Virus record (IMG/VR): IMGVR_UViG_2700989535_000004
Coordinates: 1 to 9,780 of that record
DNA from: a virus
Lineage: Duplodnaviria > Heunggongvirae > Uroviricota > Caudoviricetes
DNA: 9,780 nt
Strand: one strand, 5' to 3'
Each line of letters begins with the position of its first letter. Position 1 is the first letter of the stretch. Under the pieces are notes generated by a model. The model was given only the letters and a program-made list of their open reading frames with translations. It had not been told where the DNA came from and made no database searches. Positions 1-9,664 of the stretch are shown one piece after another. The position numbers and the translations under genes were made by a program.

Positions 1-564
1 TCAACGACTGCGCTTAGCGTGGCGCTCCCAGTTTTCTTGCTTCGCCTGCGCCGTTTTACGTAGTGCGACGTAACACGCCCCGCTGCCGCCATGATGCGGT
101 AGCGCAGTGCAATATGCCTGAACATCATCAAATTCGGTCAGCCAGCGCGCCACATAGCTGCGGACAATATTGGCATGCGATTTATCATCCCGTCCTTTGC
201 CATGAATAATCAGCACGTTACGCAAACCATCAGCCATGGCTTGTTGAATGAAACTGAACATCATTTTGCGGCACTCTTCCACCGGCTGGCGCAAAAGATT
301 CAGGCTCGCCTGTTGCGGATATTTACCACTGCGCAGCTTATCCAGCACCCCATGTTGCAACCCTTCCCGCCGAAACTCCAGCGGCTGACTTAGTGGGATG
401 ATGTCGAGAAATCCGGTGGTGAGGAAATTATCAAGCTGCAGCGTGTCGATACGCTGCGGCGCACGTTGGTTACGCGTTGGATGCCAGTGGACATCGGTAG
501 CACGTTTCAGCGGCTGGACATCTTCCATGGCGTCAAGAAACAGCGATTTGTCGTCAAGGTTCAT
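1..564 (-). CDS. smrA: Smr-domain protein (SmrA/YdaL-like putative DNA endonuclease); host gene flanking the island
   Basis: Complete 187-aa ORF on the minus strand with stop at 1-3. Smr-type core motif (..NVLIIHGKGRDDKS..). The 187-aa length and the MNLDDKSLFLDAMEDV N-terminus match my recollection of E. coli SmrA rather than SmrB; not verified by search. Confidence 0.7.
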   Translation of the reverse strand: MNLDDKSLFLDAMEDVQPLKRATDVHWHPTRNQRAPQRIDTLQLDNFLTTGFLDIIPLSQPLEFRREGLQHGVLDKLRSGKYPQQASLNLLRQPVEECRKMMFSFIQQAMADGLRNVLIIHGKGRDDKSHANIVRSYVARWLTEFDDVQAYCTALPHHGGSGACYVALRKTAQAKQENWERHAKRSR

Positions 565-5113: not shown

Positions 5114-5316
5114 CCCCACTACCCCCCACTTTTTCGCCTCACTTTTTAAGCTCCCCACATGATTTCCAACCTTGTTTTTTTGTGATTCTAATATGTTGTT
5201 TTTCAATGTGTTTTTTATTCCTCACTTTTGAGCCTATATACAGATTGAAAAGTGAGGGGCGCGGTTGCTTTTTGTTCAGTTCCTGCTATCCCCTCACTTT
5301 TGCGCCTCACTTTTTA
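5114..5316. repeat. Iteron array flanking an AT-rich core: putative replication origin
   Basis: CC(C/T)CACTTTT(T) copies at 5124-5134, 5137-5147, 5219-5229, 5292-5301 and 5304-5315; partial copies at 5114-5120 and 5153-5160; one inverted copy (AAAAGTGAGGGG, 5247-5258). A T-rich core lies at 5161-5217. The array starts at the stop codon of the replicase gene. Confidence 0.65.
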
Positions 5317-6729
5317 CAGTGGGCGCACATCATCACCGTCAATAGCGATAACGCCGTCTCTTTCCAGCTTGTACAGCCAGCGCCGGAAGTTTTTCATCTC
5401 ATACCCCAGCTTTTTCATATCATCGCGCAACAACGGGATAGTGCATTTATCGCCGCGCTGTGTGCGTGACCGGATACAGCCCCATAGTGCGGCGTGATTC
5501 TCCGTCTTGTTTCCGGCCTCCTCGATGCGCTCCAGTTCAACGGGTGGGCGCGGCTTATCCACAACCACCAGCGACGTGATTAACTCCTTGTCAGCGTCGG
5601 TAAAAAGCTCCACCACACGTAAATCATATGCAGCCTCTTTCAGTTCCTCCGCGTCCTTCATTTTGGTGCAGGAGATAACCAGGGCCTCACTGTCCGCGCC
5701 TTCGCGGCGGATCCGGTACTCAGCGTCCAGAGATGCACGAAATGCACTGGAACCACGCGCCCCTTTTGTTTCATCCTTGCCGGAATGGTGAACCACCAGC
5801 ACCGTGGCCCCTGTGCGTCGTTTCAGTTCGTCACATCCACGGATAAACGCCCCCATATCCCGCGCGTCATTTTCATCATTACCGCCAAAGCAACGCGCCA
5901 GCGTATCCAGAATAATCATGCGTACCGGTTTACCCGTTTCCCGTTCAACCTGGCGGGATGCGATAACCATTTCATCAACATCAAACTGGGCTGCAGGAAA
6001 AATCGGGCGGGTTACCAGGTACAGATTTTTCACCCGTTCATCATTAACGATTTCCCATGCCTTGATACGGCGGGGGACACCAATGCCACCTTCACCGACA
6101 ACATACATCACCGAACCATGCGCCACCCTGCGACCTCCCCAGTGGCGACCCGTGGCAACATGACACGCCCAGGAACACGCGAGGAACGATTTATAGGAAC
6201 CGCTCGCGCCGTATGTGCTGCACAATGAATTAGCCGGAATCACGCCCTTAACGACATAATCAAGCTGTGTGTCGTACCCTGCAGATCCAATGCTCATTGG
6301 TAGCGTGGTTTTTCGCTGACTGTATTGCTCGTCAGTAAGTATTTCCCCGCGCTCTGCCTGTTCGCGGATCCGTTGCAGGTAGTCGTGCCAGTTCTCCAGC
6401 TTCTGACTGTGCATTCCCTCAGGGTAATAATTCGCATCCCGTACACCTGCCGCCGCCAGCTTTTGCCCGATGGCATTAATATTTGACGGCTTGATGTGGC
6501 CTGCCTTGTACAGTCGGACACAATAGCGACCATCGTCGATAATTTTCAGGCCTGCCAGTTCGTCAAGCTGGCTGTCTCCCAGCCATACAGGCGGAACATT
6601 GTCGCCAGCAAGTCGCCCGTCCTGCTCCTGCCATTGTTTCGCGTGCGCCCAGGCATCACTACCCGCAAAAATAATGACTTCGGTCATTTTGTCGTAAGGC
6701 TGTTTTTTTAAGTTCGGTGCGCTTTTCAT
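5314..6729 (-). CDS. Replication initiator, primase/helicase type, with RepA-like AAA_25 ATPase core
   Basis: 471 aa. Walker A-like GASGSYKSFLA (Tyr where Gly is usual), Walker B-like RMIILDT and a VLVVHHSGKDE motif typical of RepA/AAA_25 helicases. The N-terminal 170 aa may be a degenerate Toprim (EVIIFAGSDAW..LKIIDDG) and the C-terminal 100 aa a DNA-binding domain. ATG at 6727-6729 (SD AGGGG, 6-nt spacer) overlaps the upstream stop as ATGA. Confidence 0.8.
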   Translation of the reverse strand: MKSAPNLKKQPYDKMTEVIIFAGSDAWAHAKQWQEQDGRLAGDNVPPVWLGDSQLDELAGLKIIDDGRYCVRLYKAGHIKPSNINAIGQKLAAAGVRDANYYPEGMHSQKLENWHDYLQRIREQAERGEILTDEQYSQRKTTLPMSIGSAGYDTQLDYVVKGVIPANSLCSTYGASGSYKSFLACSWACHVATGRHWGGRRVAHGSVMYVVGEGGIGVPRRIKAWEIVNDERVKNLYLVTRPIFPAAQFDVDEMVIASRQVERETGKPVRMIILDTLARCFGGNDENDARDMGAFIRGCDELKRRTGATVLVVHHSGKDETKGARGSSAFRASLDAEYRIRREGADSEALVISCTKMKDAEELKEAAYDLRVVELFTDADKELITSLVVVDKPRPPVELERIEEAGNKTENHAALWGCIRSRTQRGDKCTIPLLRDDMKKLGYEMKNFRRWLYKLERDGVIAIDGDDVRPL

Positions 6730-7025
6730 TTCTTGCCCCTGAATCCGTTAATCATGGTTTTCAGCTTCTGGATGTTTGCCCGTGCCCTGGCGTTGCTGGT
6801 GGGCACGTTATGCGGCGCGGTCTGTACCAGAGAAAAATCACACCGGAACTGATAAACAGGCATCACGCAATCATATTCGTAACCTTCACGGCGGTAGATT
6901 ACGCGCCGTTCTTCCACGCCCTTAATCATTACCGTGCCGCCGTACTGGTCGCGGTAAATATCACCGCGCGTAAATTTAGGGTGAGTGTTGCCACTGGCAG
7001 TTAAGCCAGAATATTTAAGTTTCAT
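6726..7025 (-). CDS. Hypothetical protein (99 aa)
   Basis: ATG at 7023-7025 with SD GGAGA upstream; stop overlaps the replicase start. Tight operon context; no family recognised. Confidence 0.5.
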   Translation of the reverse strand: MKLKYSGLTASGNTHPKFTRGDIYRDQYGGTVMIKGVEERRVIYRREGYEYDCVMPVYQFRCDFSLVQTAPHNVPTSNARARANIQKLKTMINGFRGKK

Positions 7026-7030
7026 TATTT

Positions 7031-7264
7031 TTATTCTCCGGTGTGCTGTTCTTTATATCTGTCGTGCAATAGATCTATTTCTTGCAGTTCCATTATTACA
7101 GGCTCAAGAAGCGTTATTAATGCCGTGGCAATTCTTGATTTTTGTTTGTCGCATTCATTGTCGCCAAGTGTTTCAAGCCATATGCGCAATATTTCCAGCA
7201 TGTTTTCACTGTGAGAAAGTGCAAGAAATGCGCGGTCTATTGTTTCGTGGTAAATATCACGCAT
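7031..7264 (-). CDS. Hypothetical protein (77 aa)
   Basis: ATG at 7262-7264 with SD GAGGA (about 8-nt spacer); 5-nt gap to the next gene. No family recognised. Confidence 0.45.
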   Translation of the reverse strand: MRDIYHETIDRAFLALSHSENMLEILRIWLETLGDNECDKQKSRIATALITLLEPVIMELQEIDLLHDRYKEQHTGE

Positions 7265-7490
7265 GGCTTACATCCTCAGGAAATTTTCTTCTGTAACGCG
7301 CCTCTGCCACATATTCCGCATAATCGGCGGCGATATTCAGTACATCAAGCCCCGTTGATTTATATTCTCTCGTGGAAAGTAAGAAAAAAGCCGCTCTAAT
7401 AAGCTCTGGCATTGACGAAAGCGCATCAGCCGCATCATCAGGAACGCCGGAAAATTCCTGTTTCAGGGAATTAAAACGATCATCACGCAT
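7257..7490 (-). CDS. Hypothetical protein (77 aa); possibly the C-terminal half of a frameshifted gene
   Basis: ATG at 7488-7490 lies 2 nt downstream of a G9 tract on the coding strand, which could serve as a G-rich SD. The frame is closed 6 codons upstream of the ATG. See finding on the homopolymer. Confidence 0.4.
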   Translation of the reverse strand: MRDDRFNSLKQEFSGVPDDAADALSSMPELIRAAFFLLSTREYKSTGLDVLNIAADYAEYVAEARYRRKFPEDVSHA

Positions 7491-7723
7491 AACCCCCCCC
7501 CATTTTCACAATCAGCAATCAGGATGGCTTTGGCCTCATTCAGCGCCATATCCGCACTAAGTTGCATAACCGCCAGCGAATGAGGAACGAAAGCCCCGGC
7601 ATATTCTGTTTCACTGGTAGCGTGCTTATGCGCCCTGTCCGCGATAACAGAAATATCAATCAGCGCATCAATCAGTGTTTTGATTGCTTCGGCGGCTGCG
7701 TCCGGACGGGTGTTATTGCACAT
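7463..7723 (-). CDS. Hypothetical protein (86 aa); possibly the N-terminal half of a frameshifted gene
   Basis: ATG at 7721-7723 with SD AGGGGGT (5-nt spacer). The reading frame passes through the G9 tract (encoding GGG) and stops 28 nt later, overlapping the next ORF. Confidence 0.4.
   Translation of the reverse strand: MCNNTRPDAAAEAIKTLIDALIDISVIADRAHKHATSETEYAGAFVPHSLAVMQLSADMALNEAKAILIADCENGGGLCVMIVLIP
7493..7501 (-). repeat. Homopolymeric tract: C9 on the plus strand, G9 on the coding strand
   Basis: Read directly (aaCCCCCCCCCatttt). Sits exactly at the junction of two overlapping out-of-frame ORFs. Confidence 0.95.
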
Positions 7724-7919
7724 GGTGCACCCCCTGACGAATACGGGCGGCGAATACCATCACGCAGCCAGCCGGTGATTGCTGACGGGCTTCCTGTTCG
7801 CTGGTGGCCTCAATGGTAATCACGCGCGGTTGTGCCGTACTCAGGGCGATAAAACGCCAGATGTATTTATTCAGGTTGTGCGAGTCCCGCCCTTGCGGGT
7901 GTATGGTATGATTTCTCAT
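7713..7919 (-). CDS. Hypothetical protein (68 aa), first gene of the minus-strand operon
   Basis: ATG at 7917-7919 with SD GAGG (5-nt spacer). The six-frame ORF extends to a TTG at 8009, but that extension would cover the leader hairpin and has no RBS. Confidence 0.4.
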   Translation of the reverse strand: MRNHTIHPQGRDSHNLNKYIWRFIALSTAQPRVITIEATSEQEARQQSPAGCVMVFAARIRQGVHHVQ

Positions 7920-8017
7920 AGCAGCCTCGATAATCTTGCTATCGTTGGTGGTTAGACGCCCCGTATGTGTTTCCGGCACTGCGGGGCGTTGCTCTTTGTA
8001 TTTCAACAATTCTTTTG

Positions 8018-8096
8018 GTGTGTTTCATGTTATGAGCGCATGAAACACACGTCAAGGCTTTTTGTATTTCTTTTTTTGTGTATACTGAAACACACC
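8018..8096. promoter_or_regulatory. Divergent promoter/operator region: perfect 12-bp inverted repeat overlapping a minus-strand sigma70-like promoter, plus a third half-site at the plus-strand promoter
   Basis: GTGTGTTTCATG (8018-8029), 9-bp spacer, CATGAAACACAC (8039-8050). Minus-strand promoter: -35 TTGACG (revcomp of 8050-8055), 17-bp spacer, -10 TAACAT (revcomp of 8027-8032). Third half-site TGAAACACAC at 8086-8095 just downstream of a plus-strand -10-like TATACT (8081-8086). A fourth GTGTTTC lies at 7967-7973 inside a leader hairpin (ACGCCCCG 7956-7963 / CGGGGCGT 7982-7989). Confidence 0.5.
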
Positions 8097-8116
8097 GATG
8101 ATTAGGAGTTTCAGAA

Positions 8117-8422
8117 ATGGCAACGGCTAACAAAAACGCAAAATCACAACTGACAACTGTCAGAGTCCCACTAGATGTTATGCAAGGGATGGAATCCGTT
8201 AAGCTGGACGGCGAAAGCAATGCCGGATTTATCGTAACCGCCATGCGCGGAGAAATAGCCCGCCGCCAAGCAGAAGGCAGCGGAGAAAATCCCCTTGTGT
8301 CGTCACTGGATGCCCTGGCTAAGGTCGAACAAATCGGCATCAAAGCAGCGGAAGAAATCGGGCAGCTTGTCACCGTTGCACGCGAAGAACTCCAGCGTCG
8401 CAAGACCAAAGAACCAGAGTAA
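8117..8422 (+). CDS. Putative ribbon-helix-helix (RHH) DNA-binding protein, 101 aa; candidate island repressor
   Basis: Strong SD (TAGGAG, 8-nt spacer). N-terminal segment QLTTVRVPLDVMQGMESVKLDGESNAGFIVTAMRGEIARR fits a beta-strand/helix/helix RHH pattern. Operator-like repeats lie just upstream and an intrinsic terminator downstream on the same strand. Composition is A/E/K-rich, unlike the Ser/Arg/Cys-rich opposite-strand reading. Confidence 0.6.
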   Translation: MATANKNAKSQLTTVRVPLDVMQGMESVKLDGESNAGFIVTAMRGEIARRQAEGSGENPLVSSLDALAKVEQIGIKAAEEIGQLVTVAREELQRRKTKEPE

Positions 8423-8479
8423 TCACCATCAGCGCCGTGGTGTAAGGTATTACGGCGCATTGCTATGCAGGACAACACA

Positions 8480-8653
8480 ATGACCGATAAAGAATTGACC
8501 AAAACATTATCACCGGCACGGAAAAGACGGCGCAGAAAGATAGAGCATGAATCAGAAAGATTCGCGCCATGTGCTTTTGCTCTTGAGAAATTCCTTAAAG
8601 AGCACAGGAAAAAGCTCTCGTTGCAAACCTTGGAACGAACCAAATCTGACTGA
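8480..8653 (+). CDS. Small basic protein (57 aa), co-transcribed with the RHH gene
   Basis: ATG at 8480 with AGGA 7 nt upstream; the ORF-track start at 8465 has no SD. Contains an RKRRRRK block. Followed 80 bp later by an intrinsic terminator. Confidence 0.4.
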   Translation: MTDKELTKTLSPARKRRRRKIEHESERFAPCAFALEKFLKEHRKKLSLQTLERTKSD

Positions 8654-8732
8654 TCACATTGCCCACCAGCCGCAAATGTGGCATTGTTGGTGATGCTCAT
8701 GCGTTGGGGATAACGTGTAGCTTGTGTCGAGG

Positions 8733-8761
8733 GGCCACCGTAGCGGGTGGCCTTTGTTTTG
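8733..8761 (+). terminator. Rho-independent terminator of the plus-strand cassette
   Basis: GGCCACC (8733-8739), loop gtagcg, GGTGGCC (8746-8752), then TTTGTTTTG. The U-tract is on the plus strand only. Confidence 0.6.
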
Positions 8762-8763
8762 CC

Positions 8764-9129
8764 TGTTATCCGGCAATTGTGGCGCTTCGCCACACGGTTG
8801 ATATAATCCCACTGCTCAGATTCATTTTTTGCGCAGTAGGTTAATTGTTCACAAAGGCGCTCCGGCAACGGGGCGCTTTTTGTTTTTATTAGTTTGTAGA
8901 AACCTGACTCAGAGATAATGCTCATATTCTGATTGCCGTCAGGGGTGTAAGTTAAATTTACTCCCTTTTTATCATCAAACATCTGCAACGCTCTGGCGTT
9001 AACAATATTGGTTTCACTCCCTCCAGTAAGGCCGGAAATAACCGGAATAATTTCGGCAAAATTTTGCAGATTCTGTTTTTCAGGACGAACGAAGCCCCGC
9101 CCTTGTTCGGGAGAATATCCAGTATTCAT
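8764..9129 (-). CDS. Hypothetical protein with a possible Bro-N-like motif; 3' boundary undefined, possibly a truncated remnant
   Basis: ATG at 9127-9129 with only a weak SD. The segment PDGNQNMSIISESGFYKLIKTKSAP resembles the Bro-N core (GGKQ.MT.INESGLYSLI..S.KP), but the N-terminal Bro-N signature is not evident. The ORF formally continues without a stop to 7939, across the plus-strand terminator, cassette and promoter region; I list only the 5' part, ended at an arbitrary in-frame position. Confidence 0.3.
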
Positions 9130-9181
9130 GGTTAGATCTCTGTATTAGTGGATGGGTGGCGGCTGTGTGCCGCCAGCCTGA

Positions 9182-9370
9182 TTAGTGAACTGCCTCGCAG
9201 CTTTCCTTCCATGCCAGAACTTCGGATAAAGACCAGCCAACGGAACGACCGCCGAGCTTACGCCGTGATGGGAATTGTCCGGTTTTTTCCAGGCGGTACC
9301 GACATGAACGGCTCAGGCCTGTAAGTTGCTGACATTCTTTTTCACGTATAAAGCGATCTGTGCTTAACAC
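9182..9370 (-). CDS. alpA: AlpA-family transcriptional regulator / excision-associated HTH protein (62 aa)
   Basis: DRFIREKECQQLTGLSRSCRYRLEKTGQFPSRRKLGGRSVGWSLSEVLAWKE matches the AlpA/Vis-type HTH. Start taken at GTG 9368-9370, preceded by SD AAGGGGGA (3-nt spacer); the 118-aa ORF-track start at 9538 has no comparable RBS. Confidence 0.75.
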   Translation of the reverse strand: MLSTDRFIREKECQQLTGLSRSCRYRLEKTGQFPSRRKLGGRSVGWSLSEVLAWKESCEAVH

Positions 9371-9403
9371 AATTCCCCCTTTGATATTTCTTAAAGAGTT
9401 ATT

Positions 9404-9450
9404 TGGTGTCCTATTGTGTTGTGGTGCGTCGGATTGTGTCAGGGTGTTTA
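9404..9450. repeat. Five (T/G)GTGT(C/T)-type motifs at 10-bp phasing upstream of alpA
   Basis: TGGTGTC 9404-9410, TTGTGTT 9414-9420, GGTGCGTC 9423-9430, TTGTGTC 9434-9440, GGTGTTT 9444-9450. Confidence 0.7.
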
Positions 9451-9664
9451 TGGAATGGCAAACACTGGCGGCGGTCATTTTACAGAAGTGTGGTAATGAG
9501 AATAAAAACTCTTTTAATTCATTGTGGTGCAAAGGCATAAAATTCTGTTTTTACGCCTTTTTTACATGTTTTTAAGAGTGATTCGCCAATGTACAAAAAG
9601 CCAGTAAAACGACTGAAAATCAACTTTTTAGGGTGTCAGTCAGATGTTAATCAAGTTTGTTCCA

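Follow-up and report, generated by a model that had tools for sequence, protein, structure and literature searches.

The window analysed here, a stretch of 9,780 nt, is, judged by its predicted genes, a capsid-encoding E. coli phage satellite of the PICI/CP-933C type. All genes lie on the minus strand, and the early operon has the order alpA, icd-like gene, ORF1, ORF2, ORF3, rgdR and repA (Table 1). The island carries alpA, a replication gene and its own capsid and small terminase genes, with no full phage set in the window. These agree with the hallmark genes given for cf-PICIs (PMC10085698). RgdR, or ECs1581, is a 99-aa regulator of the LEE/type III secretion and of motility, and is encoded by the cryptic prophage CP-933C/OI-51 of O157:H7 (PMC3378721). 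Since the DUF4222 ORF matches RgdR in its length and in its RGD, the window appears to be a CP-933C-like satellite, with an rgdR homolog two genes 3' of the homopolymer tract that is the subject of this study. A Smr-domain gene of chromosomal type lies at the window end, which places one boundary of the island somewhere from about 600 to 1340; the window contains no tRNA gene, and the end of the island that carries the integrase lies beyond it. The 396-aa ORF at 7939-9129 (-) is probably not a gene: at homologous loci, RefSeq annotates a YlcI/YnfO-family gene on the plus strand (window 8117-8422) and, in this stretch, no more than remnants of a BRO-N gene.

Table 1. The G tract, the reading frames that meet at it and the other genes of the island, in window coordinates.
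Feature	Position	Strand	Description
G9 homopolymer	7493..7501	-	Gly-Gly-Gly near the 3' end of ORF1; 2 nt 5' of the ORF2 ATG
ORF1, 86 aa (G9 state)	7463..7723	-	N module, residues 1-74 (phrog_5146), then GGG and the frame-dependent tail LCVMIVLIP
ORF1 TGA stop, G9 frame	7463..7465	-	27 nt beyond the tract; 25 nt within ORF2
ORF2, 77 aa	7257..7490	-	C module (phrog_24341); own ATG 7488-7490; protein MRDDRFNSLK...
ORF3, 77 aa	7031..7264	-	phrog_2196 (unknown function); 8-nt ATGCGTGA overlap with ORF2, 7257-7264
Icd-like gene	7713..7919	-	NF033153; overlaps the ORF1 start; GGGGG Shine-Dalgarno before ORF1; from RefSeq of homologous loci
DUF4222/RgdR-family gene, 99 aa	6726..7025	-	PF13973; RGD at residues 20-22
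RepA-family helicase	5314..6729	-	AAA_25; the island's replication gene
AlpA	9182-9370	-	Phage_AlpA; two copies in the window
Smr-domain gene	1-564	-	Chromosomal type; at the window end
Remaining genes			SSB, Phage_cap_E major capsid, lambda-gpD-like decoration protein (HDPD), second AlpA-like, Nu1-like small terminase (Phage_Nu1)

The tract is a C9 on the plus strand and a G9 on the minus strand, where ORF1 crosses it as GAA AAT GGG GGG GGG TTA. After the three Gly codons, ORF1 continues for nine more codons to its TGA, and its C-terminal end reads ...ENGGGLCVMIVLIP*. A sequence-only reading of this DNA had described an 86-aa ORF that passes through the nine G and a 77-aa ORF that begins 2 nt after them in another frame, and this arrangement is present as described. 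The frame of ORF2 is -1 relative to that of ORF1. One additional G, or a -1 slip, would join the two as ...ENGGGVMRDD.... The single fused protein proposed by that reading therefore stands as to the join, and its size is 155 aa, the earlier figure of about 160 aa having been slightly high. In G8 alleles, the ORF1 stop shifts to the ATGCGTGA overlap at 7483-7490. The ORF1 C terminus differs between the split states, being a strongly hydrophobic stretch of nine residues, LCVMIVLIP (7463-7492, -), in G9 and only YA in G8. By chance, 0.09 runs of G9/C9 are expected per window, and at least one such run occurred in 11 of 200 dinucleotide-preserving shuffles. On its own, the G9 run is only borderline, or mildly unusual. 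It is the behaviour of the tract across genomes that sets it beyond chance.

Tract length and gene models across genomes

Tract lengths were counted in 5,426 complete E. coli genomes by exact match with 30-nt flanks. The census, whose genomes are phylogenetically non-independent, gave G7 in 120, G8 in 123, G9 in 97, G10 in 11 and G11 in 1. An earlier "spread" sample had suggested a G7 majority of about 78%, a figure inflated by clonal STEC lineages and superseded by the exact-flank census. At 90% identity or more, the junction is found in about 690 complete E. coli genomes (~13%). The viral sequences of IMG/VR, sampled as 119 loci containing the ORF2 start, have a similar range: window-type junctions have G7 in about 24 loci, G8 in 23, G9 in 16, G10 in 3 and G11 in 2, and there are a few interrupted runs.

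Tract length decides how the locus is read. G7 and G10 alleles have a single gene of 154/155 aa, and G8, G9 and G11 alleles have two genes. Five complete genomes (L001-L005) share identical 30-nt flanks and have unlike tract lengths. With G7 there is one CDS of 465 nt and 154 aa (L001, WP_000336167.1); with G8 there are genes of 79 aa and 77 aa (L002 and L004), with G9 of 86 aa and 77 aa (L005), and with G11 of 80 aa and 77 aa (L003). Of the 120 best protein homologs, 84 have a length of 154 aa and 18 of 155 aa, and the junctions of the fused homologs read ENGGVMRDD (G7) or ENGGGVMRDD (G10). The sequence-only reading had called for a comparison of tract lengths in related islands and for a search for relatives with a single protein. 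Lengths from G7 to G11 occur among otherwise identical islands, and relatives with G7 or G10 encode one protein of 154/155 aa. What would have spoken against that reading, a fixed length and always two genes, is not what is found. The Shigella flexneri copy (L008, 3205-3500), a G8 allele, combines a variant N module with another frameshift within ORF2; it is genuinely decayed, unlike most E. coli copies.

The length of the tract changes quickly. Between the window (5300-9600) and E. coli KSC1031, 4301 nt are identical save for one G missing in the tract. The 460-nt flank haplotype of the window is found with G8, G9, G10 and G11, and tract length differs in 10 of the 22 pairs of loci with identical 402-nt flanks. 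Fitch parsimony on a UPGMA tree of the flanks gives at least 32 length changes over 71 leaves, against 36 with shuffled labels. Tract length is almost uncorrelated with the flank phylogeny and is near saturation relative to point substitution. On contigs from NCBI, ENA and Logan, products of the window haplotype are present for G7 (15), G8 (78), G9 (163, the exact 86-aa product of the window), G10 (4) and G11 (2), and none is present for G5, G6 or G12-G14. The exact ORF2 product is found on at least 1000 contigs. As at a contingency locus, a slip-prone coding homopolymer varies in length among close strains faster than point substitution.

Modules at the junction and the ORF2 start

ORF1 and ORF2 match their PHROG families at E-values of 1e-32 to 1e-50. 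PHROGs holds a fused family (phrog_2512, 154 aa), an N family (phrog_5146) and a C family (phrog_24341), all annotated as of unknown function. A HMMER scan of 1.84 billion representatives returned 49 relatives only. The distant relatives are either N-only proteins of 77-84 aa that end in ...HHA or ...DHA and have no Gly run, or C-only proteins of 75-77 aa that start at the Met of ORF2. In the metagenomic relative L006, what comes after the N gene is an unrelated gene of 71 aa that overlaps it by 8 nt. The N and C modules are of separate ancestry. The AF2 model, with a mean pLDDT of 68, predicts two helical parts, a hairpin spanning residues 9-73 with a pLDDT of about 80 and a second module at about 92-146; between them, the residues around the Gly run (77-91) are disordered.

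A profile-based locus search found E. ruysiae and S. flexneri as the only species representatives, which suggests that the family is narrow and essentially confined to Escherichia/Shigella. Pfam, NCBIfam and PADLOC gave no match for ORF1, ORF2, the fused protein or ORF3, and a sequence profile search of the PDB gave none for the modules. A function based on fold was set aside, as Foldseek of the AF2 model against the PDB returned generic helical hairpins only (E > 1). A link to P4 orf151 or to a catalogued phage was likewise dropped after tblastn with the fused protein found no match in 50,697 phage records. The notion of ORF1, ORF2 and ORF3 as tandem paralogs was dropped too, their PHROGs being different and similarity not evident. 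Distant N-module proteins end in ...HA*, which is consistent with a ATGCGTGA-type junction, and P0232 is a deletion fusion at RLRDD/MRDD.

The G run probably also serves as the ribosome-binding site of ORF2. The predicted duplex between the run (G6-G12) and the 3' end of 16S rRNA has an energy of -10.5 to -12.7 kcal/mol, with -12.7 kcal/mol for the G9 run of the window; the consensus Shine-Dalgarno sequence gives -13.3. At the icd/ORF1 junction, GGGGG has a predicted duplex of -13.1 kcal/mol, and other operon junctions use GGGGG as well. ORF2 also occurs behind a different gene, of 127 aa, in E. ruysiae and at 42 IMG/VR loci, and here again a G run is followed by TAAAC and the ATG. The run in this context is G6 at 30 loci, G7 at 4 (and at 3 more with G7AAAC), G8 at 3 and G10 at 2; the ATGCGTGA overlap results from G6 and G9, and a 203-aa fusion from G8. 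A predicted duplex near consensus and a variable G run behind a second upstream gene both argue for the G-rich Shine-Dalgarno sequence that had been offered as an alternative to a frameshift. The spacing from run to ATG is just 2 nt in the window context, so the run would have to be used in a sliding way. As in a coupled gene pair, a run complementary to the anti-Shine-Dalgarno lies within about 15 nt of the ORF2 start, and the two genes are independent in relatives. Codons of the GGAGGTGGC type have no complementarity to the anti-Shine-Dalgarno, and GGTGGCGGT keeps Gly without anti-Shine-Dalgarno pairing or slippage.

The start of ORF2 resembles another start in the operon. The 9-mer ATGCGTGAT occurs twice in the window, at 7482-7490 and 7256-7264 (-), which are the starts of ORF2 and ORF3, with 0.12 occurrences expected. 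It contains the 8-nt start/stop overlap ATGCGTGA, and its presence at both starts means that G8 alleles recreate the canonical junction of the operon. G8 and G11 alleles have this overlap, in G9 the stop lies inside ORF2, and in G7 and G10 there is no stop. The ATGCGTGAT/ATGCGTGA junction may be a conserved module boundary for the shuffling of small genes.

Long G runs are not confined to this junction. Related islands have further runs of at least seven G, nearly always on the coding strand (28 G runs against 2 C runs). For about half of the coding-strand runs (12 of 26), an ORF of 40 aa or longer, alpA among them, has its start codon 1-5 nt after the run. Relative to the ORF2 start, further runs of 7-10 G are found at 5358 (L017), 4891 (L057), 2830 (L033 and L117), about 5000 (L040 and L082) and -1699 (L127), and a further run lies at +333 in L047, L057, L078, L100, L108 and L122. 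Several of them vary between loci (G8 vs G10; G7, G8 and G9). These satellite islands may in general have unstable Shine-Dalgarno sequences made of poly-G.

We consider it likely that a hypermutable tract, at once a G-rich Shine-Dalgarno sequence and a Gly linker, toggles the locus between one fused gene and two coupled genes. The tract lies where two small helical modules meet, N (ORF1) and C (ORF2), each of which would fold independently. These would have originated as separate, translationally coupled genes, with the G run serving first as the Shine-Dalgarno sequence of ORF2 within the last codons of ORF1. Once grown to at least seven G, the run would become a hotspot of slipped-strand mispairing in DNA replication, and each change of +/-1 would move the locus among three heritable configurations. 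Alleles with n = 7 or 10 would produce a fused two-domain protein of 154/155 aa with a Gly linker. With n = 8 or 11 there are two genes whose stop and start share ATGCGTGA, the canonical overlap, and n = 9, the state of the window, gives an ORF1 with a 9-aa tail and a stop 25 nt inside ORF2. Since ORF2 keeps a strong Shine-Dalgarno-like run and an ATG in every state, the C module would probably still be made, by translation from its own start. The switch would alter the covalent linkage, the ORF1 tail and perhaps stoichiometry, and not presence or absence.

Selection and competing explanations

Purifying selection on the two modules is equal in all states. Across all alleles, pN/pS is 0.30 for the N part of ORF1 and 0.41 for ORF2. 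In-frame alleles have 0.28 (ORF1) and 0.41 (ORF2), and out-of-frame alleles have 0.30 and 0.41. An open ORF2 is found in nearly all alleles, 43 of 45 split and 30 of 31 fused. The frame state appears to be tolerated, because pN/pS is equal in both states and because 131 of the 352 tracts in the complete-genome census (37%) are in frame. Equal pN/pS would also be expected if switching outpaces substitution, even with out-of-frame alleles that are OFF.

This last consideration belongs to a classical contingency locus, the best placed of the alternatives and still an unlikely one. Mutability itself would be under selection, and the full-length or C-terminal protein would be ON in G7/G10 and OFF in G8/G9/G11. 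Such a locus would give the satellite population heterogeneity, for example in its interaction with helper phages. The hypermutable tract and its different lengths among near-identical islands are what a contingency locus would have, and fast switching would mask relaxed selection in OFF alleles; but ORF2 has an ATG and a strong Shine-Dalgarno-like run in all states, and distant homologs work as separate genes. The tract is retained across alleles with a pS of about 0.25, only about 10% of tracts being interrupted, and the second, independent junction before ORF2 also has a variable G run. However, the 127-aa-gene context is dominated by the split state (G6 in 30 of 42), the in-frame share is near the neutral one third, and close strains mostly share one length, as in the O26 group, the UTME group and NCTC86, of which two independent assemblies both have G8. 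The phase variation raised by the sequence-only reading is, in its ON/OFF form, unlikely at a locus at which ORF2 has its own start, constraint is equal in all frames and about one third of alleles are in frame.

A wider form of this explanation is a selected contingency element of the satellite, in which slippage heritably switches between a fused protein and two polypeptides, or turns the C module off. We regard it as improbable. If the contingency reading were true, the element would diversify the dealings of the satellite with its helper phages or host, and the G-run Shine-Dalgarno sequences at several junctions would be a set of such switches.

It is very improbable that G9 is an artefact or a mark of decay, that is, an assembly error or an inactivating frameshift in a decaying cryptic element. 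Some sequencing chemistries often misread homopolymer length, and some length calls in public assemblies, for example from older 454 or uncorrected long-read data, may be homopolymer errors. The nearest complete genome is one G off. Against an error, which the sequence-only reading had allowed for, 163 contigs of several sources carry the exact product of the G9 haplotype, compared with 78 for G8, and 97 complete genomes have G9 with the same flanks. Control homopolymers at the same loci are constant, T7 in 23 of 23 and A6 in 41 of 42. As for decay, the second frameshift inside ORF2 of the Shigella copy is what it would lead to, but both ORFs are open and constrained in out-of-frame alleles.

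In the ORF1 frame, G_GGG_GGG fits the X_XXY_YYZ pattern of a slippery heptamer, a -1 shift would give exactly the G10-encoded protein, and a Shine-Dalgarno-like run can stimulate frameshifting. Low-level compensatory frameshifting is known on the G run of HSV thymidine kinase (PMC5009743), and adventitious shifting at a similarly low level may occur here. GGN is one of the codons less prone to shifting in E. coli (PMC4066793). Transcriptional slippage by the RNA polymerase of E. coli has been characterised on A/T runs (PMC6260861). Programmed recoding in G9, by a -1 slip of the ribosome or a G added by the polymerase at a set ratio of ORF1 to the fused 155-aa protein, is the least probable explanation, and the -1 slip suggested earlier is not upheld in a programmed form: the two-frame arrangement varies among homologs, G9 is no commoner than either G7 or G8, G8 would need a +1 shift, the fold of 7400-7520 (-) shows neither a signal above shuffles (z = -0.04) nor a separate downstream stem as a stimulatory RNA structure, and the sole predicted hairpin involves the slippery run itself.

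Significance and relation to known systems

The tract is present in about 13% of complete E. coli genomes, EHEC lineages included, with the virulence regulator RgdR and the satellite replication gene two genes downstream of it. Tract length explains why the locus is annotated as one gene or as three two-gene versions, and why it is spread over three PHROGs families. PHROGs already catalogues the fused and split forms as families, without linking them through the tract. The alleles are a natural fused/split series for probing early satellite proteins, and the tract is a cheap marker of very recent divergence among otherwise identical islands.

Poly-G/C contingency loci are known from Campylobacter, Neisseria, Haemophilus and Helicobacter and are often annotated as two ORFs that flank the tract. 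Repeat-driven gene switching is textbook knowledge in Neisseria, Haemophilus and Campylobacter, but documented cases in E. coli are rare. Neither an earlier description of this tract nor a report of repeat-driven switching in phage satellites turned up in a literature search.

Like the poly-G/C contingency loci, the tract is a coding run of at least seven G with +/-1 changes, probably of the slipped-strand kind, near-identical strains differ in its length, and one or two ORFs are annotated according to that length. Unlike them, it is found in E. coli, a host in which such loci are rare, and its gene is on a phage satellite. Another difference is that the downstream half has a probable Shine-Dalgarno sequence, an ATG and independent homologs, so that out-of-frame alleles would probably give two proteins and not none. 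The locus also resembles coupled genes of the ATGnnTGA type, since G8 alleles have the ATGCGTGA overlap of ORF2 and ORF3 and the putative G-rich Shine-Dalgarno sequence falls within the final codons of the gene before it, as at the icd/ORF1 junction. In contrast to other coupled overlapping genes, this Shine-Dalgarno sequence would be a long, unstable homopolymer, and coupling geometry and fusion state vary by strain. With dnaX, lambda G/GT and the G run of HSV thymidine kinase it shares a slippery run at a frame overlap, where a -1 shift gives a longer fusion. It differs from them in that the frame arrangement varies, there is no stimulatory structure, and the fusion is mostly encoded in the DNA. 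In summary, the tract belongs to a known kind of element and is a new case of it; both the host and the mobile element that carries it are unusual.
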